DNA of 64,000 bases from Candidatus Latescibacterota bacterium (lineage in GTDB: Bacteria; Latescibacterota; UBA2968; GCA-2709665). The stretch lies in contig OZ244744.1 in the NCBI GenBank assembly GCA_965219455.1, positions 3,168,001-3,232,000 on the forward strand, written 5' to 3'. Each line of letters begins with the position of its first letter. The first letter of the stretch is position 1. The translations under genes were made by a program, and so were the position numbers. Under the pieces are notes generated by a model that was given only the letters and a program-made list of their open reading frames with translations, ran no database searches and was not told where the DNA came from. Below, in pieces: positions 1,819 through 44,837 of this stretch.

Positions 1819-2048
1819 GGCAAACCTCCTTATTCTTGTGATTCGTTGAGATGCTCCGGCGCACCGGAAAATTCCGGTAACCGAAACCCTTCCAACGCGT
1901 TTTAGGGTACAGCAACCAGGTATCGAAGCAGGATTATAAAGAAAGTAACTGTTATATCAATGTCAAGCGATTTATTCGAATCCGGGCGCATCTCAGTCGC
2001 CCTGGTGCGCGGGCGATTCCGTTGCCCGGCATAACCGGAGAGGCCACC

Positions 2049-4493: not shown

Positions 4494-4521
4494 CGGGCTA
4501 AACCAGGCGTCACGGGAATCA

Positions 4522-4682
4522 GTGCAACCACAAGGGTTGCCCCTGCGGTGTTCGCGGTCTGGCGCGGGGAAGTGTTGGGGCGGATTTGGAAGGAATACCC
4601 AACCGTTGTTATTTTCATAGGTGATGCCATGCCACGTCGGTGAAGACATTATAATTGTATGGGCGCCCCTTTGTGGGCGCCC
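4522..4682. repeat. REP pair (GCAACCACAAGGGTTGCCCCT + GTATGGGCGCCCCTTTGTGGGCGCCC) with a RAYT-derived linker; left border of the island
   Basis: Palindromic 25-26 bp units matching the REPs around the RAYT at 19.2-20.9 kb. Confidence 0.85.
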
Positions 4683-4708
4683 GATCTGTTTTTTCCTCGC
4701 ATGATGGC

Positions 4709-4740
4709 TTGACACTGTTCCCAAAAGTAATTACTATAAT
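4709..4740 (+). promoter_or_regulatory. sigma70-type promoter of mazEF
   Basis: TTGACA-17 bp-TACTAT (overlapping TATAAT); GTAATTAC palindrome is a possible operator. Confidence 0.65.
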
Positions 4741-4785
4741 TGCATAACTACCTTCACGATTTTCATCCAATCAGAGGTCAGCAAT

Positions 4786-5028
4786 ATGGCAATCAGGGAT
4801 GTCAAACTTATCGCGATAGGCAACTCCAGGGGTATTCGACTACCGAAAGCGCTGCTGCAAAAATATGGATGGGGGGACTCGCTCGTAATGGAAGAGACTG
4901 AACGAGGGGTTCTGCTGTATGGGAAAGATCGGAATAAGCTGACCTGGAAGGAAACATACCGCGAGATGGCCGCTGAGAATGAAGATTGGAGCGACCTCGA
5001 CGCAACGGTCGCTGATGGCCTGGACTGA
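4786..5028 (+). CDS. AbrB/MazE-family antitoxin
   Basis: KLIAIGNSRGIRLPK swapped-hairpin motif; stop overlaps the toxin start. Confidence 0.92.
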   Translation: MAIRDVKLIAIGNSRGIRLPKALLQKYGWGDSLVMEETERGVLLYGKDRNKLTWKETYREMAAENEDWSDLDATVADGLD

Positions 5029-5360
5029 TGTCCGCATATCCCCGCCGATATACGATATATTTGGCCGACCTCAATCCCGCCGTAGGTGGAGAGATTCAAA
5101 AGGTTCGCCCGGTTGTAGTGGTCAGTCTGGATGTGATGAATCAGTTTCTGGATACGGTTGTCGTGTGTCCGCTTACCACATCTCTGCATCCTCATTGGCG
5201 GGGTAGAATGCAGATCCAATGCGCGGGCAAAGAGGCTGAAATTGCTGCGGACCAGATTCGCACCATTAGCAAACAGCGACTAAAGCGCCGAATTGACAAC
5301 CTGTTCGGCGACGACGCGGCGCAGCTCCGCCGCCTTATCACCGAGATGTATGGGGAATAG
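5028..5360 (+). CDS. PemK/MazF-family endoribonuclease toxin
   Basis: YLADLNPAVGGEIQKVRPVVVVS, CPLTT, DQIRTISKQRL. Confidence 0.93.
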   Translation: MSAYPRRYTIYLADLNPAVGGEIQKVRPVVVVSLDVMNQFLDTVVVCPLTTSLHPHWRGRMQIQCAGKEAEIAADQIRTISKQRLKRRIDNLFGDDAAQLRRLITEMYGE

Positions 5361-5620
5361 CGAAAAACATGGTAAGATGTAGATTCAGCTGGTGCAGTAA
5401 GTGCGGTTGCCCGGACTGAGACATGGGTTCTCCTGAGTAAAAAGGCCTGTGTATTCCGCAACATATCTCGTAAGTATATTGGCTTGGACGATTCTTCGAC
5501 TGGATTGGCCGGTCCTCATTGATCGAGGATCGGCTGTTTCTGTAAATTGCCAGCGTAAGTTCCCTTGATTTCAATGAGAATATAGACTATATTGGACTAT
5601 ATCTGTTGAGAGGAGGACAG

Positions 5621-5905
5621 ATGATCACGCAATATCCCAAACCACGCCGCGTCTGGACGGTCGCAGAGGCCAAGGCACGGTTATCTGAAATCCTTCGTCT
5701 TGCCGAAGCGGAAGGCCCGCAGCGCATTGGGGCGCGGAAGGCTTTCGTTGTGGTGCCCGAGCGGGTGTGGGAGGCTCAGTCTTCACCCCGCAAACCGCTT
5801 GGCCAGTGGTTGATCGACAACATGCCGCGCGGCGTGAATCTCAAAATCCCTGGCGATAGAACGTCCCGGCGGGAGATTCCGTTCGACGACGGAGGAACGG
5901 GGTGA
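5621..5905 (+). CDS. Phd/YefM-family antitoxin (VapB partner)
   Basis: WTVAEAKARLSEILRLAEAEGPQRI; GTGA overlap with the PIN gene; repeated GACTATAT upstream. Confidence 0.88.
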   Translation: MITQYPKPRRVWTVAEAKARLSEILRLAEAEGPQRIGARKAFVVVPERVWEAQSSPRKPLGQWLIDNMPRGVNLKIPGDRTSRREIPFDDGGTG

Positions 5906-6321
5906 GCGGTTTTCTCCTCGACACCAACGTGGTCTCCGAACTGACCAGGAGCGTGCCGGACTCGCAGGTTATGGCATTCCTGGCTGAGCAGGACGACTTA
6001 TGGCTGTCGGCGATGGTAGTGCATGAGTTGGAATTTGGTTTGCAACTATTGCCTCACGGGCAACGTCGCGACGTATTGCACTCGGTGCTGTCAGGGTTCG
6101 TCACGGATTACCAGGACCGCATCCTGCCTGTGGACAGAATGGGAGCAAAGTGGGCGGCCTACTTTCGTGCACAGGCGCGTCGATCCGGACGGGTGCTGGA
6201 CCTGGGGGATGCGCTCGTTGCCGGAACTGCCCGGGCTCATGATCTGTCGGTTGCAACCTGGAATGTTGCGGATTTCAATGGCCTGGACGTCAACGTCACC
6301 AATCCCTGGGAACCGCGGTGA
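5902..6321 (+). CDS. vapC: VapC PIN-domain toxin
   Basis: LLDTNVVSE, ELEFG, GDALVAGTA, ATWNVADF. Confidence 0.92.
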   Translation: MSGFLLDTNVVSELTRSVPDSQVMAFLAEQDDLWLSAMVVHELEFGLQLLPHGQRRDVLHSVLSGFVTDYQDRILPVDRMGAKWAAYFRAQARRSGRVLDLGDALVAGTARAHDLSVATWNVADFNGLDVNVTNPWEPR

Positions 6322-6355
6322 CCGGGAAAGTGAGGGCAGCCGCAACGGAAAACCA

Positions 6356-6536
6356 GGGCAACCACAAGGGTTGCCCCTACGACGCCATGTTTGGGCGCGG
6401 GTGAATGTGTTGTACTGGCGGACTTGGGCGTTACGCCGAACTGCCTGCCTGCATTGACATAGAGGCATTTTTCGCAATGCCTGACCGAAATTGTGCGTGA
6501 TTTTTCGATTTGTAGGGGCGCCCCTTGTGGGCGCCC
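6356..6536. repeat. REP pair with a RAYT-derived linker
   Basis: GGGCAACCACAAGGGTTGCCCCTAC at 6356-6380; GTAGGGGCGCCCCTTGTGGGCGCCC at 6512-6536. Confidence 0.9.
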
Positions 6537-6627
6537 TGCCTTTTTTGTCCCACCAAAGGCTTGACATCATCCGATAAAGTAACTATATGACTTCTGTAAC
6601 AGACGGAATCCAAGAAAGGTCGACTGA

Positions 6628-6870
6628 ATGGCAACGTGGGATGTCAAACTGATCGCTATCGGCAACGCCAGAGGAATTCGTCTTCCCGAAGCGCTACTAA
6701 AGAAATACGGCTGGGGCGACTCGCTGGTCCTGGAAGAGACTGAACATGGCATGGTGCTACGCGGCAAAGAACGAAATAAGCTATCCTGGAAGGAAACCTA
6801 CCGAGCCATCGCTGCCGATAATGAGGACTGGAAGGATCTCAACGCGACGGTCGCCGATGGCCTGGATTGA
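6628..6870 (+). CDS. Second AbrB/MazE antitoxin copy (orphan)
   Basis: 63/80 aa identical to 4786-5028 by manual count; TTGACA at 6561. Confidence 0.9.
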   Translation: MATWDVKLIAIGNARGIRLPEALLKKYGWGDSLVLEETEHGMVLRGKERNKLSWKETYRAIAADNEDWKDLNATVADGLD

Positions 6871-6914
6871 TGTCCGGATTTCCCGGGCGAAATGCCATCT
6901 GCTCCACCGAGTGA
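6870..6914 (+). pseudogene. Stub of a mazF paralogue
   Basis: Same TGATG coupling; MSGFPGRNAICSTE* aligns with MSAYPRRYTIYLAD and then stops. Confidence 0.6.
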
Positions 6915-6949
6915 CGGAGATGTACCGGGAAAGCGGTTCCGGTCGCGAA

Positions 6950-7075
6950 CTGTGGAAGACAGAACGATGTCTTGACGGCCACTTGTGTCACACAACGTCA
7001 GTTGTAGGCCAATATCGACGAAAAATGGCCGACAAAATACGTTGATGGCAATGACTGACCGTCAACCGTCGATTC
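6950..7075 (+). repeat. ~125 bp imperfect direct repeat, copy 1
   Basis: ttgacggccact...aaaatggccgacaaaatacgttgatggcaatg recurs at ~7505-7632. Confidence 0.8.
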
Positions 7076-7328
7076 TGCCGGGTGCTCTGACGACGGCTAT
7101 AGAATCGAACCTGAAACGACCCCGGTTTGGAGGCGGAATATCTCGTACGGCGGCGGAGAGAAGATCAGGCACTGTGCGTCGAAGTGGCACAACTGCGCCG
7201 TGTCTTCTCTGAAATTTGCGGCAAATGGCGATTACTAAGGCGACGGCTGCGGTCTCAACCGATTCCCATCTATCTCTTTGGATACATTTTTCGCCTTTCT
7301 CCACCACATTCGCAGGTTCATTTTCCGT

Positions 7329-7412
7329 GTAGGGGCGCCTCTTGTGGGCGCCCGGCCTTCCAGCGACACGGTGCGCGCCTGAATATAAACCAGGGCAACC
7401 ACAAGGGTTGCC
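7329..7412. repeat. REP pair (REPIN-like)
   Basis: GTAGGGGCGCCTCTTGTGGGCGCCC at 7329; truncated GGGCAACCACAAGGGTTGCC at 7393. Confidence 0.85.
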
Positions 7413-7504
7413 TGTCTGCCGCCTGCCTCGTCTGCTTCAGCAGGCAGGACAGGCAGGCCCCTGCGGGGGATGGGTGGACTCGATTTTGGGATTCGCGTAA
7501 ACGT

Positions 7505-7632
7505 TGCGGAAGGCAGAAAAGTGCTTTGACGGCCACTTATGTCCCACAATATCCCTTGTCGGTCAATATTGAGAGAAAATGGCCAACAAAATGCGTTGAT
7601 GGCAATGGCTGTCCGACAACGACCCTCGATTC
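7505..7632 (+). repeat. ~125 bp imperfect direct repeat, copy 2
   Basis: Colinear with 6950-7075. Confidence 0.8.
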
Positions 7633-7818
7633 CGTGGGATCTGTAGAGGGGGGATGTAGAAAGTGGTAGAGATCCCCGGGGCAATTTAATGAATCAGTCC
7701 GGAAATCAGGGATTGGAATTGAAGCACAGATGATTTCGCCGATTCAGTGGAGATCCTGACGTAAGAAAAAGATTCTATTTGTAGCTGGAACACAAAAGGG
7801 AACTGAGGAGAGTGCTCT

Positions 7819-9015
7819 ATGGAAGGCAAGAGGTTCATTCGGTCGATTCGGCTAGACAACTTATTATCCTATGGTTCCTGGGAACGAGAGTTCGATCTAG
7901 AGCCCTTAAACGTCCTTATCGGCCCTAACGCTTCCGGAAAGTCGAACTTGATCGAAGCGCTCTCGCTTCTCGCAGCAGCGCCTACCAGGGATCTACAGGC
8001 ACCAATTCGGGAAGGGGGAGGCGTTCGCGATTGGTTATGGAAGGGCGCCACCCGACTATCCACGGCGACCTTGGACGTTACCATTGAGTACCATGGTGAA
8101 CAACCGCTCAGGTACAGGCTATCGTTCACGGAAAGCGCGGCGCGTTTCGAACTCAAGGATGAGGCGGTCGAGAGCGAAAGACCTACGCCAGGCAACGAAG
8201 ACCCGTATATCTTCTATCGATACCAGGAGGGCAGGCCGGTGCTCAACGTCTTCACACAGGAGGAGTCCCGGTTTAATCGGCGCCTCACACGTGAAGACGT
8301 GCATGCCGAGCAGTCGATACTGTCTCAGCGACGAGATCCCGACTCCTATCCGGAATTGACGTACTTGGCTAGCAGATTCGAGCGTATGCGCTTTTATCGT
8401 GAGTGGAATCTCGGGCGCTCTGGACCGCCGCGCCTTCCGCAGCAGGCCGACCTCCCGCAGGACAGCCTGCTTGAGGACGCCTCTAATCTCGGCTTTGTGC
8501 TAAGCAGTTTGTTAAATCAACCGCCTGTCAAACGCCAGATACTGGAACAATTGAGAATCTTTCATCCTTCGGTCGAGGATATTCTTGCCACATTCAACAG
8601 CGGTACAGTTCAGTTATTCCTCCACGAAGAAGGCTTGTATCATCCTGTGCCGGCCACTCGCCTCTCTGACGGATCCCTGCGCTTTCTATGTCTTCTCGTC
8701 GTGCTCTGTAATCCCGATCCGCCGCCTGTTGTCTGTATCGAGGAGCCGGAGATCGGCCTGCACCCGGACGTGATCCCGGAAGTTGCGGCGCTTCTGGTGA
8801 AAGCGTCTTCCCATAGCCAAATATTCGTCACAACACACTCTGACATTCTCATTGACGCGCTCACGGATACTCCGGAGGCCGTGGTTGTTTGCGAGAAATC
8901 GGACGGTGCGACGCAACTTCGCCGTCTTGACGCCGACGAACTCAAACCGTGGCTCAAAAAATACCAACTTGGCGAGCTCTGGGTAAAAGGGGAAATTGGA
9001 GGGAATCGGTGGTGA
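7819..9015 (+). CDS. ABC-type AAA_21/AAA_15 ATPase
   Basis: Walker A GPNASGKS, signature LSDG, Walker B/D-loop CIEEPEIGLHP, H-loop TTHS. Confidence 0.92.
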   Translation: MEGKRFIRSIRLDNLLSYGSWEREFDLEPLNVLIGPNASGKSNLIEALSLLAAAPTRDLQAPIREGGGVRDWLWKGATRLSTATLDVTIEYHGEQPLRYRLSFTESAARFELKDEAVESERPTPGNEDPYIFYRYQEGRPVLNVFTQEESRFNRRLTREDVHAEQSILSQRRDPDSYPELTYLASRFERMRFYREWNLGRSGPPRLPQQADLPQDSLLEDASNLGFVLSSLLNQPPVKRQILEQLRIFHPSVEDILATFNSGTVQLFLHEEGLYHPVPATRLSDGSLRFLCLLVVLCNPDPPPVVCIEEPEIGLHPDVIPEVAALLVKASSHSQIFVTTHSDILIDALTDTPEAVVVCEKSDGATQLRRLDADELKPWLKKYQLGELWVKGEIGGNRW

Positions 9016-9649
9016 AGATCAAGCTTTATGCCGAAGGAGGAGGTGGTAGCAAGGCGCTCAAAAGGGCGTGCCGCAGGGGTTTTCGCATATTCATTGAGAA
9101 GTCGGGGTTGAAAGTACGGATGCCCGAAATTGTAGCCTCCGGCAGCCGCGGGAACGCGTACGAGGACTTTAAGACGAGACATCGTAATACGACAAAAATG
9201 AAGGCGCGCTGCTTCTGGTGGACGCTGAAAGGGCGGTAGGGGAAACGGGGCCGTGGCAACACCTCAAGGACAGTGATGGCTGGGACCGCCCCGACAGCGC
9301 AACGGACGACCAGTGCCACCTTATGGTGCAAGCAATGGAATCATGGTTTCTGGCGGACCGTTCGGCCCTTGAGGAATACTATGGCCAGGGCTTTCAGGAA
9401 ACCGCGCTCCCTTCGAATCCGCAGATTGAGCAAGTTCCCAAAGGTGACGTCCTCCACGGCATTCGCCGGGCTACCGACAGTACCACAAAAGGCCGTTATG
9501 ACAAGGGATCCCACAGTTTCGAGATCCTGGCGACAATAGACCCTTCAAAAGTGACGAGTGCGTCGCCCCATGCGAAACGATTTATCGAAACACTCTTCAA
9601 GTTTTCAGGAAGTGGAACTGCGGCGGATAAGGATCCTTCGAGCGGGTAA
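9012..9649 (+). pseudogene. DUF4276-family (TOPRIM-like) protein, frameshifted
   Basis: KLYAEGGG N-terminus in one frame and LLLVDAE...MVQAMESWFLAD...YDKGSHS in another; shift near 9180-9200; span 638 nt. Confidence 0.8.
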
Positions 9650-9705
9650 CAGGTGGATAAATCGCACCGTTAAACTGGTTTCCTTGAAATAGAGAACCGA
9701 TAAAT

Positions 9706-12504
9706 ATGCGACTATCGTGGAATGAAATCCGCGCCCGCGCCGCCAAGTTTGCGCAAGACTGGATGGACAGGGGCTACGAGAAGGGCGAGACACAGCTCTT
9801 CTATAGCGAGTTCTTTAACATATTCGGGATGCCTGTTCGCCGGGTGGCTGCATTCGAGCAACCCGTCAAACTACTCGGCGACAAGCGTGGCTTTATCGAC
9901 CTGTTCTGGAAAGGCGTCCTGCTCGTCGAGCAGAAAAGCGCAGGCCGCGACCTCGTTGCGGCCAAGACCCAGGCCCTCTCCTACTTCCCGGGACTCAAGG
10001 ACGTCGACCTTCCACGCTACATTCTGCTGAGCGACTTCGCAACGTTTGAGCTATACGACCTCGACGAAGACGAAAGCGTCGCCTTCGCCCTGGCCGATCT
10101 ACCTGATAACATTGAAAAGTTCGGCTTTATTCTCGGCCTCCAGAAGCGCACCTTCAAGGATCAAGACCCGGTAAACATTCAGGCGGCCGAGCGTGTGGGC
10201 CTTCTCCACGACGCGCTGGCGGCTTCCGGCTACACCGGCCACGACCTGGAGCAATTCCTCGTTCGGATCGTCTTCTGCTTCTTTGCCGACGACACCGGTA
10301 TCTTCGAGCCGCGCGACATCTTCCTTGACCTGTTGGAAAATAGGACGAACGAAGACGGCTCAGACCTGGGTGGCTGGCTGGCGCAATTGTTCCAGGTGCT
10401 CGACACGCCTGACGACCAGCGCGTCAACACCCTCGACGAAGATCTTGCCCGCTTCCCCTACGTTGACGGGGACCTGTTTCGCGAGACATTGCGCATCCCG
10501 TCGTTCGATGCCCAAATGCGCCAGAGGCTGATTGATGCTTGCCATTTCAATTGGTCGGCTATCTCTCCGGCCATCTTCGGCTCGCTATTCCAGTCTGTGA
10601 TGGACGAGGACGAACGCCGCGCTAAGGGCGCGCACTATACGACCGAACAGAACATCCTCAAGGTTATCGAACCCCTGTTCCTCGACGATCTGCGCGAGGA
10701 GTTCCAACGCCTGAAGTCGCGCCGCGACACGCGTCGCATTCCCGAACTGATCGCCTTCCAGCAGCGGTTAGGGACGTTGCGCCTCTTTGATCCGGCCTGC
10801 GGCTGCGGGAATTTCCTCATCATTGCCTACCGCGAGTTGCGGGCACTGGAAATCGAGGTACTAAAGGAAATTCGCCCGAAACGCCAGGTCGACGCCTTTG
10901 CAGAGTTGCTTTCGGTCGTAGATGTCGATCAGTTTTACGGGATTGATTTGGGGGAGTTTCCGGCGCACATCGCAGAGGTCGCATTGTGGATGATGGACCA
11001 CATTATGAACAACCGGCTGAGCCTGGAGTTCGGCCAGACGTACGTGCGCATTCCGCTGGAGAAATCCCCGCACATCCGGCATGGCGACGCGCTCGAGTTT
11101 GATTGGAGCGAATTACTGCCGCCGGAGGAATGTTCCTACGTGCTCGGCAATCCCCCATTTGTGGGCGCGAAGTTTCAATCGACCGAGCAGCGCGAACAAG
11201 TGCGCGCCATCGCTGCCCTAGGCAAGAGCGGCGGCACGCTCGACTACGTTACCGCGTGGTTCATCAAGGCTGGGAAATACGTTCAGGATAGCGCGGCGCG
11301 GATCGGTTTCGTGGCGACTAATTCCATCACGCAGGGCGAACAGGTTGCACAACTCTGGCCAATCCTATTCGAACGCCATAAACTGGATATCGCCTTTGCA
11401 CACCGTACGTTTGCCTGGGGATCGGACGCGCGTGGTATGGCGCACGTTCACGTGGTGATTATTGGATTGGCCAAACGGGACGATGCACTGCGACAGAAGC
11501 GGTTGTTTTCATACGATAGCCCGAAAAGCGATCCGCAGCAGAGCCAACACACCGCCCTCTCACCCTATTTGTTCGATGCAAGTGGTTTGACCGATTCGGG
11601 AGTTGTCGTAAGGGGGGCACATCTACCGATCAATGGACTACCAAGGCTCATCATCGGCTCCAAGCCCATCGATGGCGGCCATTATATCTTTAAGGTCGAT
11701 GAACGCGCCACTTTCCTTCGCGAAGAGCCGGGCGCTGAGCCTTATCTCCGACCTTTCGTGGGAAGCCGCGAGTTTTTGCAGGGCGGAGAACGTTGGATAT
11801 TGCATCTGGCGGAAGCGCCGCCGCACGTGCTCAAGACGCTACCGAAAGTACGGGAGCGCATAGCGGCCGTCCGGGAATATAGGCTGGCAAGTAAGAGCAA
11901 GCCGACCCAGGCACTCGCCATGACGCCGAAGCAATACCACGTAAACGTCATTCCAACTGAGCCGTTCTTGGCCGTGCCAAAGGTGAGTTCCGAACGGCGC
12001 GAGTATGTGCCGATCGGTTGGCTGGAGCCGCCGACGATCCCAAGCGATCTTGTCTTCGTTCTGAACGACGCGACAAAGCCATTGTTCGCGTTGCTCACCT
12101 CCGCTATGCATTTTAGCTGGCTGCGTCACATCGGCGGACGTTTGGAGAGCCGTTACCGCTATTCGATCGGCCTTGTATACAACACCTTTCCTCTGCCGCC
12201 AGCCCCGCCGGAACGGATGCAACGCCTCGAGCCCCATGCGGAAGCCGTCCTCAGTGCTCGCGCTAACCATCCAAAGGAGACGTTGGCGGACCTGTACGAC
12301 CCCGACCTCATGCCTACCGACCTTCGCAAAGCACATCAGGTCCTGGACCGCGCCGTCGATAAGCTGTACCGACGGAGCGGCTTCGCCTCCGAGCGCGATC
12401 GTGTGGAACATCTATTGGGTCTTTACGAGAAAGTGGTCGCTCCGGTGACGGCCATGGCCAAGCCGAAGCGACGGCGGCGGCGACGAAGGGATGGAAAGGA
12501 ATAG
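9706..12504 (+). CDS. MmeI-like Type IIL/IIG restriction-modification enzyme (N6-adenine MTase + nuclease)
   Basis: N-terminal GFIDLFWKGVLLVEQKS, GAHYT, DPACGCGNFL, GNPPF, VSSERREY, YNTFP, LADLYDP. Confidence 0.93.
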   Translation: MRLSWNEIRARAAKFAQDWMDRGYEKGETQLFYSEFFNIFGMPVRRVAAFEQPVKLLGDKRGFIDLFWKGVLLVEQKSAGRDLVAAKTQALSYFPGLKDVDLPRYILLSDFATFELYDLDEDESVAFALADLPDNIEKFGFILGLQKRTFKDQDPVNIQAAERVGLLHDALAASGYTGHDLEQFLVRIVFCFFADDTGIFEPRDIFLDLLENRTNEDGSDLGGWLAQLFQVLDTPDDQRVNTLDEDLARFPYVDGDLFRETLRIPSFDAQMRQRLIDACHFNWSAISPAIFGSLFQSVMDEDERRAKGAHYTTEQNILKVIEPLFLDDLREEFQRLKSRRDTRRIPELIAFQQRLGTLRLFDPACGCGNFLIIAYRELRALEIEVLKEIRPKRQVDAFAELLSVVDVDQFYGIDLGEFPAHIAEVALWMMDHIMNNRLSLEFGQTYVRIPLEKSPHIRHGDALEFDWSELLPPEECSYVLGNPPFVGAKFQSTEQREQVRAIAALGKSGGTLDYVTAWFIKAGKYVQDSAARIGFVATNSITQGEQVAQLWPILFERHKLDIAFAHRTFAWGSDARGMAHVHVVIIGLAKRDDALRQKRLFSYDSPKSDPQQSQHTALSPYLFDASGLTDSGVVVRGAHLPINGLPRLIIGSKPIDGGHYIFKVDERATFLREEPGAEPYLRPFVGSREFLQGGERWILHLAEAPPHVLKTLPKVRERIAAVREYRLASKSKPTQALAMTPKQYHVNVIPTEPFLAVPKVSSERREYVPIGWLEPPTIPSDLVFVLNDATKPLFALLTSAMHFSWLRHIGGRLESRYRYSIGLVYNTFPLPPAPPERMQRLEPHAEAVLSARANHPKETLADLYDPDLMPTDLRKAHQVLDRAVDKLYRRSGFASERDRVEHLLGLYEKVVAPVTAMAKPKRRRRRRRDGKE

Positions 12505-12780
12505 TGTGGAAATATATGGAGTAAAATTCAGCTCACGAGCCTTGACCGGATAAAGAATCAAGACTACAATAGCATATACATTTGAGATTCCTTCCTACAC
12601 GAGGGCTACCAACGGAGATTGGTATTCTAATGCTAACGTTTTCCGTAAGACACCGGATGTCGCAACACATTCGGAATATTTGGTTTTTGTAATTTAAGAT
12701 TCGACAATCTTCCCCCGTTATATTCAAGGTTCCTGAAGGGGAAGAACAAACCCCGAGTCGTTACGGACGGACATTTTGTT

Positions 12781-14772
12781 ATGAAACTACAAAATACCCC
12801 GACTTCAAGGTCTGAACGTAAATACAAGATGACGGTTGCTGGCCAGTTGTTCAAACATCTGGGTTTGCAGATGTACTCTGGGGCAGTACCTGCAATTTCA
12901 GAACTAATCTCAAACGCATACGACGCCATGGCGAGAAACGTATGGATTGAACTTCCGACTCACACGTCCATCACGTCAAGTGACGAGATTGTAGTGAGGG
13001 ACGATGGACATGGCATGAGTTTTGACGAATGTAACTCTCGCTACTTGTCGGTAGGGAGAGACCGACGAATAAAGCACGATGAATGGACAAAGGAGTACCG
13101 TGATTTGAGTTCCCGGAAAGTTCAGGGAAGAAAGGGCATTGGCAAACTTGCTGGTTTCGGGATAGCAAATTTGATTGACGTCCGAACAATTAAGAGTGAG
13201 AAAATAGCGCATTTTCGAATGGATTATGACGAATTAACAAGAAGCTCGAATTTCGCCGATACGGAAGGATACGCACCCAAATCATTGCCAGATGACGGTA
13301 GACAAACCGACGATCCGGCTGGCACAACGGTTAGACTATCGCGGCTTAAGCTCAGTCGATCGATTAACGAAGAACAATTCAAAAAGAGCATTGCCAGGCG
13401 ACTTCTGGTCATTGACGAGTCCTTTACCGTGCATGTAAACGATACACAAGTGTCGAGACAAGAGATTCCATTTCAATTCAGATTTCCGAAAAGTGCCGGC
13501 GCTTGGCAGACCGATGAACTTTCAAATGGCCAACAATTTCACTGGTGGGCGGGTTTCTGCGATGGTACGATACCGGATGAAGAACAACGCGGCTTTGTTG
13601 TTTACGTGCGAGGGAAGTTGGCACAAACGCCTTGGTTTTTCGACCTTAGTGGTGGCGTTTGGGGACAACATGGCATGCAATATTTCACGGGCGAGATCAA
13701 GGCAGATTTTCTTGATGACAGTGTGGATTTGATTGCCACGGACAGGGGTACAGTTCGGTGGGAGGATCCCGCGGCCGTACCTTTGAAGGATTGGGGGCGA
13801 AAAAAGATCAGGGAGTTACTCGAGACTTGGTCGAAGAAAAGACGCGAAGCGAAACTCAAGAGTCCCAAAGTGATGGAGTTTCTGTCCCAAGCGGAGAAAC
13901 TACCTGAAAGAGAACGTCAGATTTTTGCAAAAGTGGTTGACCGTATTTGCGCTATACCTCAACTCGATAAAGACCAAGAGGGCAGGGATATAGCCGATGA
14001 ACTTGTGGAGTTTGCCTACAACGCATTGACAAATCTGAGTTTTCTTGATGCAATACGACGGTTGAACGCAGCATCTCCAAATGAAATGGACAGATTCAGT
14101 GAAGTGCTTTCCGATTGGGATATCATCGAGCTTGTAAATACGGCGCACCTCGTTAAGGGTCGGGTCGAAATCATCCGAAAATTCAAACAAATGATCGACG
14201 ATAGAGTTCCTGAAAAACCGGACATGCAGAACTACGTACGTGACCATCCATGGCTAATCGATCCGAAATGGACCGCTCTTGCGCACGAGAAAACACTCGA
14301 CAGGTTAATTGCAGATGAATTCGGAATCAAAACGTCAGATGGCAACGAAGGCAGGAGGCGACTTGATTTCTTCTGCCTTGGGGATAGGTATAAGACAGCG
14401 CACGTTGTAGAGACAAAGCGACCTGGAGAAATAGTTGGACGACAGGAATGCGATCAACTTCGTGATTATGTTTTGTTTCTTCAAAGAAAGCTCCAACATG
14501 AGGCTGACGAAGAAAACCGAAGAACGACAGTGCGAGGTCTGTTAATAGCCGATCGCATTCGACCCGAAGATGAGATTCACGCACAGACGCACCAACAGGC
14601 CGGAACATTCGATATTCGCACCTGGGATAATCTGCTAACCACAACGGAAACATTGCATGAAGAATTCCTAAATGTGGTTAGAACACGCGTTCCGTCAGAT
14701 GATCCTAGAATGAGGAGCTTGTTGGACGAATCAATCAATGCACCGATCGATTCAAACGAAGATCAGGGATGA
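12781..14772 (+). CDS. GHKL (HATPase_c_3/MORC-like) ATPase with a C-terminal PD-(D/E)xK-like nuclease region
   Basis: ELISNAYDA, RDDGHGM, GRKGIGK, GTTV; C-terminal RLDFFCL...VVETKRP. Confidence 0.85.
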   Translation: MKLQNTPTSRSERKYKMTVAGQLFKHLGLQMYSGAVPAISELISNAYDAMARNVWIELPTHTSITSSDEIVVRDDGHGMSFDECNSRYLSVGRDRRIKHDEWTKEYRDLSSRKVQGRKGIGKLAGFGIANLIDVRTIKSEKIAHFRMDYDELTRSSNFADTEGYAPKSLPDDGRQTDDPAGTTVRLSRLKLSRSINEEQFKKSIARRLLVIDESFTVHVNDTQVSRQEIPFQFRFPKSAGAWQTDELSNGQQFHWWAGFCDGTIPDEEQRGFVVYVRGKLAQTPWFFDLSGGVWGQHGMQYFTGEIKADFLDDSVDLIATDRGTVRWEDPAAVPLKDWGRKKIRELLETWSKKRREAKLKSPKVMEFLSQAEKLPERERQIFAKVVDRICAIPQLDKDQEGRDIADELVEFAYNALTNLSFLDAIRRLNAASPNEMDRFSEVLSDWDIIELVNTAHLVKGRVEIIRKFKQMIDDRVPEKPDMQNYVRDHPWLIDPKWTALAHEKTLDRLIADEFGIKTSDGNEGRRRLDFFCLGDRYKTAHVVETKRPGEIVGRQECDQLRDYVLFLQRKLQHEADEENRRTTVRGLLIADRIRPEDEIHAQTHQQAGTFDIRTWDNLLTTTETLHEEFLNVVRTRVPSDDPRMRSLLDESINAPIDSNEDQG

Positions 14773-14775
14773 ACA

Positions 14776-15882
14776 ATGAACAAAGAAAGACGAATTGCGA
14801 TTGATCTGTTCGCCGGGTGCGGCGGATTGACAAAAGGTATTCGCGATGCTGGGTTCAACGTCTCAGCAGCCGTTGAGGTTGATTTCGATGCGGCGCGGAC
14901 CTACCGATGGAACCACCCACGAACGCGCCTGCTGAGAAAAGACATCCGTGAAGTGTCCGCTTCGGATCTCAAACGGGAAACCGGCAACGAGCATATTTCG
15001 CTTCTAGCCGGTTGCGCTCCCTGCCAGGGATTCTGTTCTCTGACGAGCAAGTACGACAAGCCAGACCCTCGAAACGAACTTCTCCTTGTTATGGCCAAGA
15101 TTATCGGAGAGATTCTTCCCCGTACAGTAATTATGGAGAACGTCCCCGGCGTCTTAGGCCGGGGAAAGGCAATTTTCGATAAATTCATTGAAGTTATCTC
15201 CAAACTTGGATACCAGTACAATTGGCGTATTGAGCAGATGGCCGACTTTGGTGTACCTCAATCACGTCGTCGGTTGGTTCTCATAGCCGGACTTGGATTC
15301 GAGGTTCCCTTTCCTGAACCAACCCATGCCCGTGCCAAGGGCGAAATATGCGGTCTGCAACCATGGAACACGGTAAGGCAAGCCATTGGCCACATAGATG
15401 CGCCGATCACGTTAAAGGCAGCCTGGCGCAATGATAGCCCGGAATCTAATGACTGGCATGTGGTCCGAGATCTTCAACCACAGGTCAAGAAACGACTGGA
15501 AGCTGCGGAACCAGGGGAGACATGGTTGGCAATTGATGAGTCGGTGCGTCCTAAATGTCATCGAAGCGGCTACAGGGGCTTTACAAATACGTATGGAAGA
15601 ATGGCTTGGGACCAGGTCTCTCCTACTATAACTGGTGGGTGTACGACGGCATCCAAAGGCCGGTTCGGGCACCCGGATAAATCCAGATATACAATCTCCG
15701 TACGAGAAGCTGCCTTACTTCAGACGTTCCCCGAAGATTACAGATTTGCTACGGATAAGATGGACACCGTATGTGACCTTATAGGCAACGCGGTCCCACC
15801 TCTATATGCAAAACTGGCCGCTACGGAAGTCCTTTCTGCAATTCGCAAGAATCCGGACGAACAAGGTGAAATGCGACCATGA
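14776..15882 (+). CDS. C5-cytosine DNA methyltransferase
   Basis: [45 protein letters not shown]. Confidence 0.95.
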
Positions 15883-16334
15883 GTCGATGGCCCGGCGACG
15901 CTCGGCAAGAACGTACGACGTTTGGTGGTTTGGTTCGCGGGGAACTGATGGCTCGCGTGCGTAGCAAGGGCAATGAGACAACTGAAAAGCGCCTTGTACG
16001 TCTCTTTCGCGAGTGGCGTTTAACTGGATGGAGACGAAACCAATCGCTTCCAGGTCGACCGGATTTCGTTTTTTCGAAAGAAAAGACCCTCGTCTTTGTG
16101 GACGGCTGTTTTTGGCACGGGCACAATTGCAGAAACCTAACGTCAAAGACAAACCAGAAGGCGTGGCATGACAAAATTGCACGAACCCAAGCCCGGGACC
16201 GACGGAACAACCGTCTGCTTCGCCAGTTGGGATGGAAAGTCATACGTATTTGGGAGTGTCGTCTGGCAAAGGCTCCAGACCTCTGCATGCGTAGGATAAA
16301 ACGCAGACTCGAGGAAAGTAGAGGAACAACATAG
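15879..16334 (+). CDS. vsr: Very short patch repair endonuclease
   Basis: [36 protein letters not shown]. Confidence 0.93.
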
Positions 16335-16451
16335 AACTTGAAATTCGATCAGGAGACTGGGAGGCTTGTCGCTACTGCTTATGATCTGGACCGGGACAGC
16401 ATTGATTTGCGGATTGAATCGCGTGGATCGATCGAGAGAAGGGAGAATCCG

Positions 16452-17591
16452 ATGAGGGTCAGCATTCGAGACAAGGGGCGCTTGAGCGAGGTCTCGCCTG
16501 CCGCCCTGTCGGCCTATGCTCGTGCAGCGGGCTGGACACGGACGGACAGCTACGGGGACTCTTCAGACGTTTATGAATCGGACGGATTGCCGGAGATTAT
16601 CGTGCCGCGCACCCAACAACTGGGAGATTATGCTAACGTGGTGTCGCAACTTATCGATATCTTCGCCGACGTGGCAGGTACCGACGAACTTTCTCTCTAC
16701 CGCGACCTGGTTTCCTCCGACCGAGACGTCATTCGCGTTCGGGGCGACGAAGGCGGCGATGGGGCCGCATCCGCAAATGAAAGGATTAAACTTGCAGGCA
16801 GCGCACGTGGTATGGTACTGGCAGCCGCCTGTTCGCTGCATGATCCGCGGTCGGTCTATCGCGCTGCCGCTGACAAGGAGGCCATGAACTTTGTCCGCAA
16901 ATTACGAATGGGGCAATCCGAGCAAGAATGCCTTGTTGTAACCCTGCTGACCCCTGTCGTGTCGCCACCCATACAACAGTCCTTCATTCAGGATTCGGAG
17001 CACAACGAAGACCCGATTGAGCGCAAGATGACAAGGCGTCTGGCTTCCGCACTGCGAGCCGCCCGGCATGCAACGGAACAAACAATGGGAGGAAAAGTCG
17101 ACGCTTTCTTGCAGGCCGTGGACAACGGTGTAAGCGCCAATCTGTGCGAAGCGCTTGTGAGATTGATCGAAGCATCCACGGCGCTGGAAGTCAGTTTGAC
17201 CTGGGCCCGCACGCATCCGATGAATACGGCGCGTGAGGTCGTTCATTTTGGCAAGGGTGATGCGCCCATCCTCCGTGAGGCCGCGCGGCTGTTCCGTGAT
17301 CGCGGACCGAAACCGGATGTGCTGCTATTCGGTTCTGTTCAACGGGTCAAGAGGCGCCAGGATGAGACGTACGGAACAATCACTTTGCGAGTATACGTTG
17401 ACGGGCAAATTCAGTCAGTCGTAGCCGCCCTCACCCAGTCCGATTACGAGAGAGCCATTGAAGCTCATCAACAAAAGGCACCGGTCATTGTGGCCGGCGA
17501 CCTTGACCGCATTGGTCAACGGTGGCGCTTGTTGAATCCGCGCGTTGTTGCCGTCATTCCGCAAGAGGATATGCAGGAAGAGGGAGAATGA
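16452..17591 (+). CDS. Hypothetical protein (379 aa), defence-island associated
   Basis: GGGAGA RBS + ATG; long ORF; beta-rich OB-fold-like C-terminus (inferred); ATGA overlap with the next gene. Confidence 0.75.
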   Translation: MRVSIRDKGRLSEVSPAALSAYARAAGWTRTDSYGDSSDVYESDGLPEIIVPRTQQLGDYANVVSQLIDIFADVAGTDELSLYRDLVSSDRDVIRVRGDEGGDGAASANERIKLAGSARGMVLAAACSLHDPRSVYRAAADKEAMNFVRKLRMGQSEQECLVVTLLTPVVSPPIQQSFIQDSEHNEDPIERKMTRRLASALRAARHATEQTMGGKVDAFLQAVDNGVSANLCEALVRLIEASTALEVSLTWARTHPMNTAREVVHFGKGDAPILREAARLFRDRGPKPDVLLFGSVQRVKRRQDETYGTITLRVYVDGQIQSVVAALTQSDYERAIEAHQQKAPVIVAGDLDRIGQRWRLLNPRVVAVIPQEDMQEEGE

Positions 17592-17827
17592 GGTCAATCG
17601 ATCCAATCCATTCCCTGGCGTTTTCGATTCAAGCAAATCCTGGCGTGTATGCTATCCTTGTGGGCTCAGGGGTATCACGGTCGGCGAAGATTCCCACAGG
17701 ATGGGAGATAACTCTCGACTTGATTCGCAAGTTGGCAAAACTCGGCAACGAGACTTGCGAACCCGTTCCGGAATGTTGGTATCTGGAGAGATTCGGTAAA
17801 GAGGCGTCGTATTCCGATCTCCTTTGA
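17588..17827 (+). pseudogene. Truncated SIR2-family (SIR2_2) protein
   Basis: YAILVGSGVSRSAKIPTGWEI SIR2 N-terminal motif; stop after 79 aa. Confidence 0.8.
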
Positions 17828-17975
17828 TGTCAAGGCTGCATTCGGTGATTTGTGAGCATCGGTTGGATGATCGCCTGGTCGGTGCGATTGCAGGCCCCTT
17901 TGGTTTGCGATCTCGCCCCAATGCGGAATCTCCATTGATTTCGGTGTCTGACCGATCAAGGGAGAAGTTATTTCA

Positions 17976-18956
17976 ATGACACCTGAAAACTTGGGAAAAC
18001 TGGAATCAGTTGACCTTCGTGAAGTATGGCGGAACGAAGCTGACAATTTTACGCCATGGTTGGGGACGCAAAGGAACCTGGACGATCTCGGTGAAACGCT
18101 CGGTATGCAGATAGAGTTTCAGGCGTTTGAGGAAGCTGTTGGTCCATATTCGGCGGATATATTGTGCCGAGACATTGATGATGATAGTTACGTTGTTATC
18201 GAAAACCAGCTTGAGGAAACGGACCACGACCACCTCGGGAAACTTCTCACGTATGCGGCGCATTTCAAAGTGTCAACCGTGGTCTGGGTCGCAAAGACAT
18301 TTACCGAACAACACCGAGCGGCCGTTGACTGGCTGAATGAGACCTCGGCCGAGGGGACTCAGTTCTTTGCGTTGGAAATTGAGGTCTGGCGAATCGGTGA
18401 GTCCGCGTTCGCGCCGAAATTCAATATGGTGGCCAAACCGAACAACTGGACGAAGGGAGGTAGATCAACTGCCGCCAGTTTGACGGAGACGCAGCGAGTT
18501 CAGCTTGAATTCTGGAAAGGATTCCAAGACCACGTTTCCCGGCATGGACAGCAGATCAAACTCTCTGCGAGTCCGAAAGCGAAAACCAGTATGGCCGCAG
18601 GGGGCTTGGGGCGTACGGGTTTCCTCCTCGCCGCTGTGGCCTCGACGTATTCCGAAACCAGGGGATGGAACGGTCAGGAACTAAGGGCGGAACTAAGCAT
18701 CAGCCGGGGAGAACTCTCGGGCCGATTTCACGACTTTCTCCAATCCGAAAAGTCCGAGATCGAACGGGAGATGGGCGGAGAGTTGAACTGGTACAATCCG
18801 GAGGATTCGAATGCCTGTAGAATTTACTCTCGCAAAGACGTGGAACTATACGATCCGGATGCCCGCAATGAGCAGTACACTTGGCTTCTGGAGCAACTCG
18901 AGAGTTTCCATCGAGTCTTCGCGGAGCGGATCCAGAAGTTGGAACCTGCGCCCTAA
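17976..18956 (+). CDS. DUF4268 domain protein with an N-terminal NucS-like PD-(D/E)xK domain
   Basis: LREVWRNEADNFTPWL, ADILC, VVIENQLEETDHDHLGKLLTYAA. Confidence 0.85.
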   Translation: MTPENLGKLESVDLREVWRNEADNFTPWLGTQRNLDDLGETLGMQIEFQAFEEAVGPYSADILCRDIDDDSYVVIENQLEETDHDHLGKLLTYAAHFKVSTVVWVAKTFTEQHRAAVDWLNETSAEGTQFFALEIEVWRIGESAFAPKFNMVAKPNNWTKGGRSTAASLTETQRVQLEFWKGFQDHVSRHGQQIKLSASPKAKTSMAAGGLGRTGFLLAAVASTYSETRGWNGQELRAELSISRGELSGRFHDFLQSEKSEIEREMGGELNWYNPEDSNACRIYSRKDVELYDPDARNEQYTWLLEQLESFHRVFAERIQKLEPAP

Positions 18957-19176
18957 AGACAATTGGTACGACCACCTTCGCAAAAAGTATCAGGACCTTC
19001 AACTACTGTCAATCCGGTCAATCATGTGAACGTGTCGCCTCATATGCAAAGCGACAATTTACTCAATACGTTGAGTATTTTTACTCAATGCATTGAGTAA
19101 TTCGTTGAATTTGCGTCCAAATGCCACGGAACTGCCGCGCCGTCTGCATAAACGAAGGCCACCGCCACGCAAACAA

Positions 19177-19808
19177 GGGCAACCACAAGGGTTGCCCCTA
19201 CGCGGTACAGGGTATTCCGCTGGGCGTGAGATGCGCTTCGACTATCGATTCATCGTATTTGTCATATTTATCGCAATGCCCAGCCCTATGTATGGCATCA
19301 ACACAATTGTAGGGGCGCCCCTTGTGGGTGCCCTGCCTCGCCGCGACACGACGGTCACCGTCGCAGACCCGCGGGCCGCCGCGTGGATTGCCCCAAGGGG
19401 GTACGGGTATTCGATTTGGAGTGAGTTGCCCAACTGGCATCGAACCAGCACAGTTGGCATATTTGTTGCAATGCACAATCAAGTCCACCTGATGATTGAA
19501 ATTGCAGGCGCGTCCCGTGGGCGCCCGGCCATCCAAGACGCAATGGTCGCCGCAACGAATACGCGGGCAACCACAAGGGTTGCCCCTACAACATCACGGT
19601 CGGTCGTGGGTTAATGAGGTGGAGTGGCGGCGGCGAATTCGGGCAAAATGCCGAACGGATTTTCATCCGATGAATTGAAAACATTCGTCTCAATGCTTCA
19701 CCACATGCGCGGAATTATTCCATTTGTAGGGGCGTCCCTTGTGGGCGCCCGGGGTTAAAGAGAAGCGATGCGTGCCTTAACATAATCCAAAACAACCACG
19801 GGGGTTGA
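19177..19808. repeat. REP cluster upstream of the RAYT
   Basis: REPs at 19177, 19309, 19565 and 19726; degenerate copies near 19371, 19504 and 19791. Confidence 0.88.
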
Positions 19809-20434
19809 TCCGACAGGTGAACGGCGTGTACGATCCGGAAATCCATCATCGCCGGTCGATGAGACTGAAGGGATACGACTATTCGCAGGCAGGGGCGTAC
19901 CTTGTTACCGTTGTCGCACATGGACGGATGACGCATTTCGGCGATGTGGTTAAGGGTCGGATGCAGTTGAACCCGGCCGGAGAAATGGTCCAACGAATAT
20001 GGATGGAAATGCCCAATCGATTCCCACCTATCATTATGGACGAATTTATCGCCATGCCAAACCACGTTCATGGAATCATCATCCTGGCAGGTGCGGGCAT
20101 TGCGGGCGCCCCAACACCTAACGATCGATCGGACATCGGTACAAGAAAAAATGCAACCACAGGGGTTGCCTCTACATCGGATGGGCGCACGAGACTGGGG
20201 GATGTGGTAGGTGCATTTAAATCATTGACAACATTGGAATATACGCGTGGTGTGCGCGACAAGAACTGGCCGCCGTTTCAGGGACGGTTGTGGCAGCGGA
20301 ATTTCTATGAACATATCGTTCGGACCGACGTGTCATTGCAGCAATATCGCAAGTATATAGTTGACAATCCGGTGCAATGGCCATTTGACCGTGAGAACCC
20401 GATGGCCGTAAGTCCCAGGTCGCACTCGCTATAG
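19805..20434 (+). mobile_element. REP-associated tyrosine transposase (RAYT/TnpA-REP, HUH Y1 family); true start may be GTG at 19827
   Basis: HHRRSMRLKGYDYS, HUH motif MPNHVH, LWQRNFYEHIVR, catalytic YIVDNP; flanked by REPs. Confidence 0.92.
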
Positions 20435-20474
20435 CCAACGATATCCCGGCCATCACCTCAATACGCACAGACGA

Positions 20475-20851
20475 GGGCAACCACAAGGGTTGCCCCTACG
20501 CGGTACAGGGTATACAATTTCCAACCAGATCGGATGAATGATCGAAATTGTAGGGGCGCCCCTTGTGGGCGCCCGCCTGCCTCAGTCGGAAATGCCACGA
20601 CCATAGAAACCAGGGCAACCACAAGGGTTGCCCCTACACGGTACGGGGAATACAATTTACAACCGGGTGCAATGAATGATCGAAATTGTAGGGGCGTCCC
20701 TTGTGGGCGCCCGGCGTTTCGGCGAAGCAATGCGTGTCTGAACATAAACCAAAGCAACCACAAGGGTTACCCCTACACGGTACGGGGTATGCAATTTCCA
20801 ACCAGATCGGATGAACCATCGAAATTACAGGGGCGCCCCTTGCGGGTGCCC
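20475..20851. repeat. Tandem REP array (BIME-like), 3 units of 138-139 bp; right border of the island
   Basis: REP-B at 20475/20613/20752 and REP-A at 20550/20688/20827, with a conserved ~50 bp linker. Confidence 0.9.
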
Positions 20852-20891
20852 GGCCTTCCGATTATCTTTTTAGAAAAACGGAGGAGATCCG

Positions 20892-44812: not shown

Positions 44813-44837
44813 GGGCAACCACAAGGGTTGCCGCAAC
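44813..44837. repeat. Solo REP of the island family
   Basis: GGGCAACCACAAGGGTTGCCGCAAC. Confidence 0.75.

Follow-up and report, generated by a model that had tools for sequence, protein, structure and literature searches.

A probable core defence hotspot housing a REPtron between two conserved metabolic genes in Latescibacterota

A 64 kb window of DNA from the uncultured phylum Latescibacterota (G000:C1:3168001-3232000 of a single-contig genome of 5.84 Mb, GC content 58.3%) carries a 16.4 kb island of toxin-antitoxin (TA) and defence genes between two genes of metabolism. The locus raises the question of whether the transposase at the right end of the island, a RAYT (REP-associated tyrosine transposase, TnpA-REP), assembled it by means of the REPs (repetitive extragenic palindromic sequences) lying along it. 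A tnpA-REP/RAYT gene flanked by its own REPs was reportedly described by Ton-Hoang et al. in 2012 as a REPtron. A preliminary description of the locus had taken it for an integron-like site at which REP/RAYT activity accumulates defence and TA cassettes, and for an undescribed system. Comparison with relatives leads to a different reading: the locus is probably a core defence hotspot and at the same time home to a REPtron of TnpA-Y1 subclass 2.4, the RAYT of which does not mobilise the cargo. It thus offers a clean multi-genome view of a defence hotspot ageing, with an ancestral empty site in a sister genus, a stable TA/REPtron scaffold around a recombining, REP-free core, and systems caught in decay. 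Coordinates are positions in the window unless a genome or contig is named.

The island is a single-strand block of low GC. To its left lies a gene for an 823-aa FAD oxidoreductase/aminomethyltransferase resembling dimethylglycine dehydrogenase (DMGDH; 2022-4493, + strand; Pfam DAO, FAO_M, GCV_T and GCV_T_C) and to its right a gene of the homocysteine S-methyltransferase family (BHMT-like; 20892-21896, + strand; Pfam S-methyl_trans). All NCBIfam matches of the latter fall below cut-off, PRK07534 scoring 95.9 bits against a cut-off of 338, and "BHMT" is a family-level call only. The S-methyltransferase family has 11 matches in this genome and up to 35 in relatives (G017), an unusual expansion for methyl-group metabolism. 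The first REP (4516-4544) begins 23 bp past the DMGDH-like stop, with its 18-nt core from 4524, and the last ends at 20851, 40 bp short of the BHMT-like start at 20892, in agreement with the preliminary description, which had placed the first about 30 bp after the stop. The GC content is 0.45-0.58 within the island against 0.64 in the flanks, and all credible island genes are on the + strand, with TA and defence families named by Pfam, NCBIfam and PADLOC. No tRNA gene was found in positions 1-30000, the proteins scanned in the island matched no integrase or DDE family, and there were no att-like direct repeats besides REPs at the island borders. The absence of integrase, tRNA site and DDE transposase, the single strand and the RAYT at the right end had all been seen correctly from the outset. 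An integrase, a tRNA or att target and flanking direct repeats are the marks of an integrative genomic island, and none of them appeared at the locus in these scans.

Relatives are denoted by G numbers, G000 being the present genome. DMGDH-like orthologs of 83-90% identity occur in 13/13 same-genus genomes searched (11 of them full-length, those of G008 and G011 in two pieces); full-length BHMT-like orthologs of 88-91% identity occur in ten, and partial matches in three more. Nine same-genus genomes carry both flanks on a single contig, whereas in G002 only the left one is present. The gap from one flank to the other measures 4.8 kb in G010, 5.4 kb in G007 and G008, 5.8 kb in G014, 15.2 kb in G012, 15.7 kb in G001, 17.2 kb in G004, 18.6 kb in G009 and 22.7 kb in G013. 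In G018, of a sister genus, a REP-free stretch of 75 bp is all that separates the stop of the DMGDH-like gene from the start of the BHMT-like one, and the same PPTase gene follows downstream. G015 has a different gene upstream and in G019 the contig ends at this point, so that the conclusion that the two flanking genes were probably once adjacent, as had been supposed, rests on one informative genome.

Cassette order is the same in 11/11 genomes, G002 included, and content is variable. The phd-vapC pair is present in 11/11 genomes, the MmeI-type restriction-modification (RM) enzyme in 7/11, HEC-01, PDC-M24B (DUF1828/1829) and PDC-S01 in 6/11 each, PDC-M02B in 5/11, mazEF, type II RM with Vsr, SoFic, full-length SIR2/PDC-S65 and the RAYT in 4/11 each, and PDC-S11 in 2/11. 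PADLOC systems identified in this genome and its relatives are HEC-01, REase_MTase_IIG, REase_II/MTase_II/Vsr, PDC-M02, PDC-S11, PDC-S65, PDC-M24, PDC-S01, PDC-S14 and SoFic. Constant flanking core genes with variable content between them, mostly known or candidate defence systems (the majority being candidates by sequence), are the features by which a core defence hotspot is recognised.

Two parts of the island have different histories. In a tree of the concatenated flanks (DMGDH and BHMT, rooted with G018), G010, G014 and G008 group with G002, G004 and G007, followed by a clade of G001, G012 and G009 and then by G000 and G013. The phd-vapC pair, 77-94% identical at nucleotide level where the flanks are 83-95% identical, falls into the same clades. 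Given the shared order and the congruence of phd-vapC in 11/11 genomes, the island appears to be older than the genus. Genes of the central block are more diverged overall (66-87%) and their trees disagree with that of the flanks: in HEC-01A, G009 groups with G004 (86% identity against 84% for their flanks), in PDC-M02B G013 groups with G009, and the MmeI gene of G009 lies outside its flank clade. The slot after the MmeI gene is occupied by one of four alternatives, namely the type II RM block, a Schlafen-like gene, an HNH_5 gene with an unknown gene, or a pair of unknowns of 467 aa and 1369 aa; the type II RM block is replaced by other genes in G013, G009 and G002, at junctions without a REP. 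Where G000 has the central block, G010 has 453 unalignable bases. No REP (25-mer, at most 4 mismatches) was found within the central block, from first to last gene, in 8/8 genomes carrying it. REPs are confined to the region after DMGDH, the surroundings of the TA cassettes and those of the RAYT before BHMT. The variable slot points to candidate defence genes without a name: the adjoining 467-aa and 1369-aa proteins (L042:9535-15350 in G002, also L045:4938-6334), which match no Pfam or PADLOC family, are such candidates.

These histories suggest a fixed slot between two conserved metabolic genes that would have held TA and anti-phage genes since before the genus diversified. Its first layer would be an old, vertically inherited scaffold of phd-vapC, mazE(F) cassettes and a single-copy domesticated RAYT with its GTAG-footed REPs, that is, a REPtron. 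The second would be the REP-free central block of lower GC, made up here of HEC-01, the MmeI-type RM, the type II RM with Vsr, PDC-M02, SIR2/PDC-S65 and PDC-S11, to which relatives add PDC-M24, PDC-S01, PDC-S14, SoFic and a Schlafen-like gene. This block may turn over by deletion and by exchange of alleles or cassettes among related genomes, most likely, we infer, through ordinary homologous recombination in conserved neighbouring genes. The RAYT may maintain REPs nearby and genome-wide, with REPs and their doublets coming and going at intergenic sites of the scaffold. The hairpin repeats and the transposase would therefore live in an old, slowly eroding island that they probably did not build.

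The RAYT (19805-20434, + strand, 209 aa; subclass 2.4/Group 4 type) does not reach curated cut-offs, scoring 50.2 bits against 80 for NCBIfam REP_Tyr_transpos and 16.6 against 23 for Pfam Y1_Tnp, because an in-frame REP pair splits the domain and only its C-terminal half aligns. Its identity is secure nonetheless on invariant motifs and fold. The reading frame contains the motifs NHVHGII and RNFYEHIVR, and 44 aligned homologs show no variation at H80, H82 and Y161 or in the WQRNFYEH block. Sequence comparison with chains of the Protein Data Bank (PDB) reached only E = 0.33, to 4er8, so that a fold search was needed. The AlphaFold model (pLDDT 81.6, pTM 0.77, insert residues 90-113 disordered) gave 30 Foldseek matches in the PDB at E <= 0.001, with ISDra2, IS608 and 4er8 at E 3e-6 to 1e-5; the matches listed to rank 28 are all IS200/IS605-family (Y1) transposases or TnpA-REP (2xma, 3.3e-6; 4er8, 8.3e-6). 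The in-frame insertion, a degenerate REP B-A pair, occupies 20087-20173, where it separates the HUH motif from the Tyr motif, and an insert of about 19-25 aa relative to a paralog is present in all 4 orthologs. Across 77 of 81 sources (L045, L051, L112 and L116 lacked the motif pair and were dropped) the distance from HuH to Y varies from 45 to 112 aa, and 12-mers that recur in the gene's flanks cover 1104/15468 nt of this loop against 191/17325 of the N part and 105/8085 of the C part. The in-frame pair was considered as a new feature and rejected as such, being an already published hallmark of TnpA-Y1 subclass 2.4 (PMC6006769).

The distribution of the RAYT separates it from the cargo. This genome has one full copy plus fragments and distant paralogs. 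Ortholog-level matches occur in 5/15 genomes of the genus, each directly before BHMT at the same locus, and the other 10/15 have only paralogs of at most 47% identity at E <= 1e-30, or none. In the fifth of these genomes (G006) the RAYT is split across two contig ends, the assembly breaking in the gene at its internal REP. Cargo size bears no relation to the RAYT: gaps are 4.8, 5.8 and 16.4 kb with it and 5.4-22.7 kb without. REP numbers go loosely with the RAYT, at 14-16 at the locus with it and 0-13 without, and 73-142 against 29-131 genome-wide, being lowest in the clade that lacks the RAYT throughout; the genomes are kin and these counts non-independent. An IS200/IS605-type transposon with cargo would be a unit with defined left and right hairpin ends in several copies or places; this genus has the RAYT as one copy at one locus, and on another Latescibacterota contig, L044, its neighbours are different. 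On this distribution it appears to be a single-copy resident, inherited vertically, and not a cargo vehicle.

The REPs themselves are of two forms, A (GGGCAACCACAAGGGTTGCCCCTAC) and B (GTAGGGGCGCCCCTTGTGGGCGCCC), the reverse complement of B being the A form with compensatory stem changes. With an 18-nt core and at most 2 mismatches, 17 were counted in the window, 16 of them within 4524-20849, against a shuffle mean of 0.04; the sole REP of the family outside the island in the window is at 44815-44832. Genome-wide there are 106 core matches in 5.84 Mb, and since 16 of these (15%) occupy 0.28% of the genome, REP density in the island is far above background, a comparison on which the preliminary description had been prepared to stand or fall. 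Inside the island the REPs form inverted doublets and a three-unit tandem array; elsewhere in the genome most A forms stand singly and have other conserved flanks. The first doublet consists of the A form at 4516-4544 and an inverted B at 4655-4682, the second of A at 6350-6378 and a terminator-like B at 6512-6536. A B-A pair (7329-7353, 7387-7415) accompanies a relic of the RAYT HUH-coding segment at 7286-7415. A field at 19171-19750 combines REPs (A at 19171 and 19559; B at 19309, 19502, which is degenerate, and 19726) with decayed RAYT fragments, RAYT-like matches extending over 19411-19611 and 19645-19923. Three tandem A-B doublets with a period of 138-139 bp fill 20466-20852 and end 40 bp before the BHMT-like gene. 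In all, 5/10 gene-block junctions carry REPs, and the internal pairs at 6350-6536 and 7329-7415 separate cargo blocks as first described. Inverted, GTAG-footed REPs thus lie on both sides of the RAYT and their family is dispersed through the genome, as befits a REPtron. Several local B forms near the RAYT carry about 45 nt homologous to its HUH-coding segment, which identifies part of the local field as decayed RAYT copies.

Further decayed copies that keep a REP B-A pair and a downstream coding remnant lie at G000:C1:4145658-4145740 and 4199287-4199360. The relic at 7286-7415 is bracketed by a 116-bp direct repeat (6951-7066/7505-7620, 79%), the pieces of which are differently ordered in G013. 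Singletons of the A form (e.g. G000:C1:559692, 1041389, 2531936 and 5006418) often have a second REP family (GTAGGGGCGGTTCGCGAACC...) or a C-rich repeat (GGGACCTCTCCCCCCGGCC...) no more than about 100 bp away, giving mosaics like bacterial interspersed mosaic elements genome-wide. A second small TA cluster at G000:C1:1485890-1496100 (ParE at 1487765, PIN at 1491711, MazF at 1494214) has REPs of the same family at both ends.

Junctions between alleles were compared in the left-hand part. The REP doublet after DMGDH is present in G001, G012, G004, G007, G014 and G002, represented by a single REP in G008 and absent from G010, G009 and G013. G010 and G014, the flanks of which are 95% identical, differ in the left-hand slot. 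Of TA indels only one is resolved, the mazEF pair that G014 has and G010 lacks. The left break of this indel falls about 25 bp outside REP B, on the side of the untagged end, and no REP marks the right break; on neither side does the cargo break fall at the GTAG foot. The comparison across relatives that had been proposed therefore turned up an empty site and differing cargo, as anticipated, and did not place the breakpoints as anticipated, the central block being swapped without REPs and the mazEF break lying off the foot. In Logan contigs, the 15 joints listed of 141 at or between REPs (e.g. 6380>19725, 6381>19564) have sides of 22-29 letters and are consequently indistinguishable from repeats or other metagenome organisms. 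Contigs of run X1, which may be the sample of origin, match much of the island exactly, at a word depth of 14-21.5 as in the flanks.

Several points weigh against a resident RAYT in a hotspot that it did not shape. Several nodes of the flank tree have weak support (52-67%), and genes in the relatives were called by a heuristic that takes the longest ORF (open reading frame). The variable cassettes on the left, which are mazEF, an RDD-family gene and the orphan mazE, have REPs at their borders, and the central block as a whole lies between REPs. The extra DNA of G014 stops exactly at the 3' end of REP B, which together with the varying presence of the doublet indicates that REP elements at the locus are dynamic. 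On the more distant Latescibacterota contig L044 a RAYT of 60% identity is embedded in an operon for type I RM, which is another defence context. Around 70-odd RAYT homologs, 236 PADLOC families are matched by proteins within 3.5 kb and 100 by those 6-10 kb away, a crude measure that counts families, not proteins, and is suggestive only. The two sets comprised 369 and 285 ORFs in 310 and 260 clusters, of which 150 each were sampled and the near set cut to 136; loci without a recognisable HUH..Y ORF and the same-genus loci L043, L045 and L066 are omitted from them. The enrichment of defence genes next to this RAYT clade that had been anticipated has this much in its favour. When the island proteins were compared by tblastn with 80 homolog loci, 13 had any match; four of these are Latescibacterota relatives and the other nine gave single weak matches at varied distances from the RAYT. 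On L044 (722-13790) the order is hsdM, a Schlafen/AlbA_2 gene, a nucleotidyltransferase substrate-binding protein gene, NTase-hsdS, TPR, AAA_21, RAYT and hsdR in two ORFs, and the in-gene REPs of its RAYT are perfect.

One alternative would have the REPs act passively, near-identical hairpins serving as short homologies or slippage sites for deletion, duplication and exchange of TA cassettes, and also as terminators or insulators, with no RAYT catalysis on cargo. This is unlikely as the account of the locus, although it draws on real features. Two B hairpins (4660-4683 and 6515-6537) are followed by T runs, upstream of a mazE promoter-like site, and look like terminators; the left slot of G010 and G014 differs by breaks next to REPs; and the break in the G006 assembly falls at a REP. 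Terminator-like and promoter-like sites in the region are, however, not above shuffles (24 against 18.1 and 10 against 11.1), a single junction has been resolved, and the turnover of the REP-free block is left unexplained.

It is somewhat more doubtful that REP/RAYT elements of subclass 2.4 preferentially colonise defence and TA islands across phyla, their hairpins serving as landing pads or recombination joints for cassettes, so that the REPtron seeds and diversifies the hotspot. The joints would arise by single-strand cleavage by the RAYT or by REP-to-REP exchange. The idea is kept because REPs border TA cassettes, doublets are polymorphic, the RAYT of L044 has a defence context and PADLOC families are in crude excess near RAYTs. 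Among the papers searched, none joined "repetitive extragenic palindromic" with "defense island", in these spellings, and the present locus is a usable place to test whether defence islands are built with the help of REP/RAYT elements.

In a further proposal, which is very unlikely, the RAYT would capture and shuffle TA and defence cassettes by cutting REP hairpins and joining them again, and the island would be an integron-like accumulator bounded by REPs. It is favoured by the REP pairs that border TA cassettes and flank the defence block, by the doublet polymorphism flush with a REP end, by a REP B, promoter and mazE duplicated as one unit, by the RAYT of L044 and by the crude PADLOC excess. 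It has to contend with cassette swaps in a central block that is REP-free in 8 genomes, collinear order in 11/11, phd-vapC congruent with the flanks in all of them, a RAYT that is single-copy, fixed in place, absent from 10/15 genomes and unrelated to cargo size, and a mazEF break off the GTAG foot. Nor are TA toxin genes outside the island significantly nearer to REPs (2/25 within 1 kb against 0.72 expected, P = 0.15, for this REP family and against random positions). The decay of systems in this genome fits erosion better than accumulation. The accumulation claim of the preliminary description is not supported on these grounds, nor is the case for an undescribed system, the parts being of known kinds. 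REPs may have a role in the turnover of the small TA cassettes.

An origin of the island as what remains of an integrative mobile element (an integrative and conjugative element, an integrative mobilisable element or prophage-like) that has lost its integrase and attachment sites is highly improbable: its low GC, one insertion point between genes adjacent in G018 and one-directional genes would suit such an origin, but there is no tRNA gene, no integrase, recombinase or phage family in the proteins scanned here or in relatives (the small ORFs fam20, fam29 and fam82 lying outside the scan), no att-like direct repeat at the borders besides REPs, and genes of this kind are kept in 0/11 genomes compared.

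The preferred reading, a hotspot with a resident REPtron, has close counterparts among known systems. Core defence hotspots are characterised by flanking core genes, low GC and no single family of mobile genetic elements (Johnson et al. 2023, PMC10250203). Like cDHS1 and cDHS2 of Pseudomonas aeruginosa, the present locus has constant core flanks, a size (4.8-22.7 kb) and defence content that vary, GC below that of the genome and no single mobile element family. Unlike them it is compared between species of a genus, which makes the island older, and it is collinear in order; TA modules and a REPtron reside in it as well, and its flanks are a metabolic pair adjacent in a sister genus. RAYTs are described as single-copy, vertically inherited and often lost (Bertels et al. 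2017, PMC5581495), a pattern that the distribution of the present RAYT fits, and REPs as markers of older genome regions, mobile elements being REP deserts (PMC3390384), with which the placement of REPs here agrees.

The likeness to the REPtron, as represented by E. coli TnpA-REP 4ER8 (Di Nocera et al. 2013, PMC3733652), lies in a single-copy HUH/Tyr gene between inverted GTAG-footed hairpins, a hairpin family dispersed in the genome, vertical inheritance and frequent loss; the differences are that the REP cluster extends over 16 kb here, that many local REPs carry relics of RAYT HUH-coding sequence and that there are about 100 copies genome-wide. The assignment to TnpA-Y1 subclass 2.4, equivalent to RAYT Group 4, is by features, not by placement in a tree: long REPs, the GTAG foot and three G-C pairs at the stem base recur in Quentin et al. 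(2018, PMC6006769) and in PMC5581495. The former portrays the subclass as scattered over many phyla, including cyanobacteria, with in-frame REP insertions between HuH and Y, where the length of the region varies (PMC6006769), which is what the present RAYT exhibits, except that its in-gene pair is partly degenerate in this genus. Integrons and CALINs (clusters of attC sites lacking an integrase) share with the island a one-directional run of small accessory cassettes between imperfect palindromes. Here, by contrast, no intI tyrosine recombinase family was found among the proteins scanned, the palindromes are GTAG REPs and not attC, promoter-like sites precede the mazE genes, and in place of a site at the end of every cassette REPs are absent between most, including all of the central block.

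The cargo, all on the + strand, begins with the TA pair mazE (4786-5028) and mazF (5028-5360; Pfam MazE_antitoxin and PemK_toxin), the B hairpin of the first REP doublet, its T run and a promoter-like site preceding it in that order. A phd-type antitoxin (5606-5905; Pfam PhdYeFM_antitox, below cut-off) and a PIN/VapC toxin (5902-6321; Pfam PIN) follow, and then an orphan mazE-like antitoxin (6628-6870; a weak doc_partner match). The region of the orphan is a 76%-identical duplicate of 4775-5056, and the adjoining stretch of REP B and promoter is duplicated with it (4667-4696 and 6521-6550, 80%). An ORF at 7127-7669 was rejected: its frame crosses the REP pair there and matches no family, so it is probably not a gene.

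The central block opens with a candidate HEC-01 pair spanning 7819-9649, comprising an AAA_21 ATPase by Pfam (HEC-01A, 7819-9015; PADLOC 2.7e-171) and a DUF4276 gene (HEC-01B, PADLOC 8.8e-52) in two pieces, 8979-9188 and 9191-9598, owing to a frameshift near 9189-9191. Contigs from runs X1, X5 and X7 have 4 extra bases behind 9189 or 9192 that would bring both parts into one frame; the split is a genuine frameshift allele or else an error of the assembly. An MmeI-type (IIG/IIL) RM enzyme at 9706-12504 has five MmeI Pfam domains and a PADLOC REase_MTase_IIG score of 1165 bits. The type II RM block, with the lowest GC of the island (12781-16334), consists of a BbrUII/HgiDII-like restriction endonuclease (12781-14772), a Dcm C5-methylase (14776-15882) and Vsr (15879-16334). 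The candidate defence protein PDC-M02B (16338-17591; PADLOC 1.4e-116) is without its partner PDC-M02A (DUF4365), which is present in G013 and G009. The SIR2-type gene (PADLOC PDC-S65 in relatives) is an N-terminal stub at 17588-17824 with 79 of 586 residues left (tblastn 84-87% identity), the 586-aa gene being intact in G013, G001, G009 and G004. Together with the mazE that has no toxin, these make up the decay seen in this genome. The last gene before the REP field is a candidate defence protein of the PDC-S11/DUF4268 type (17976-18956), assigned by PADLOC.

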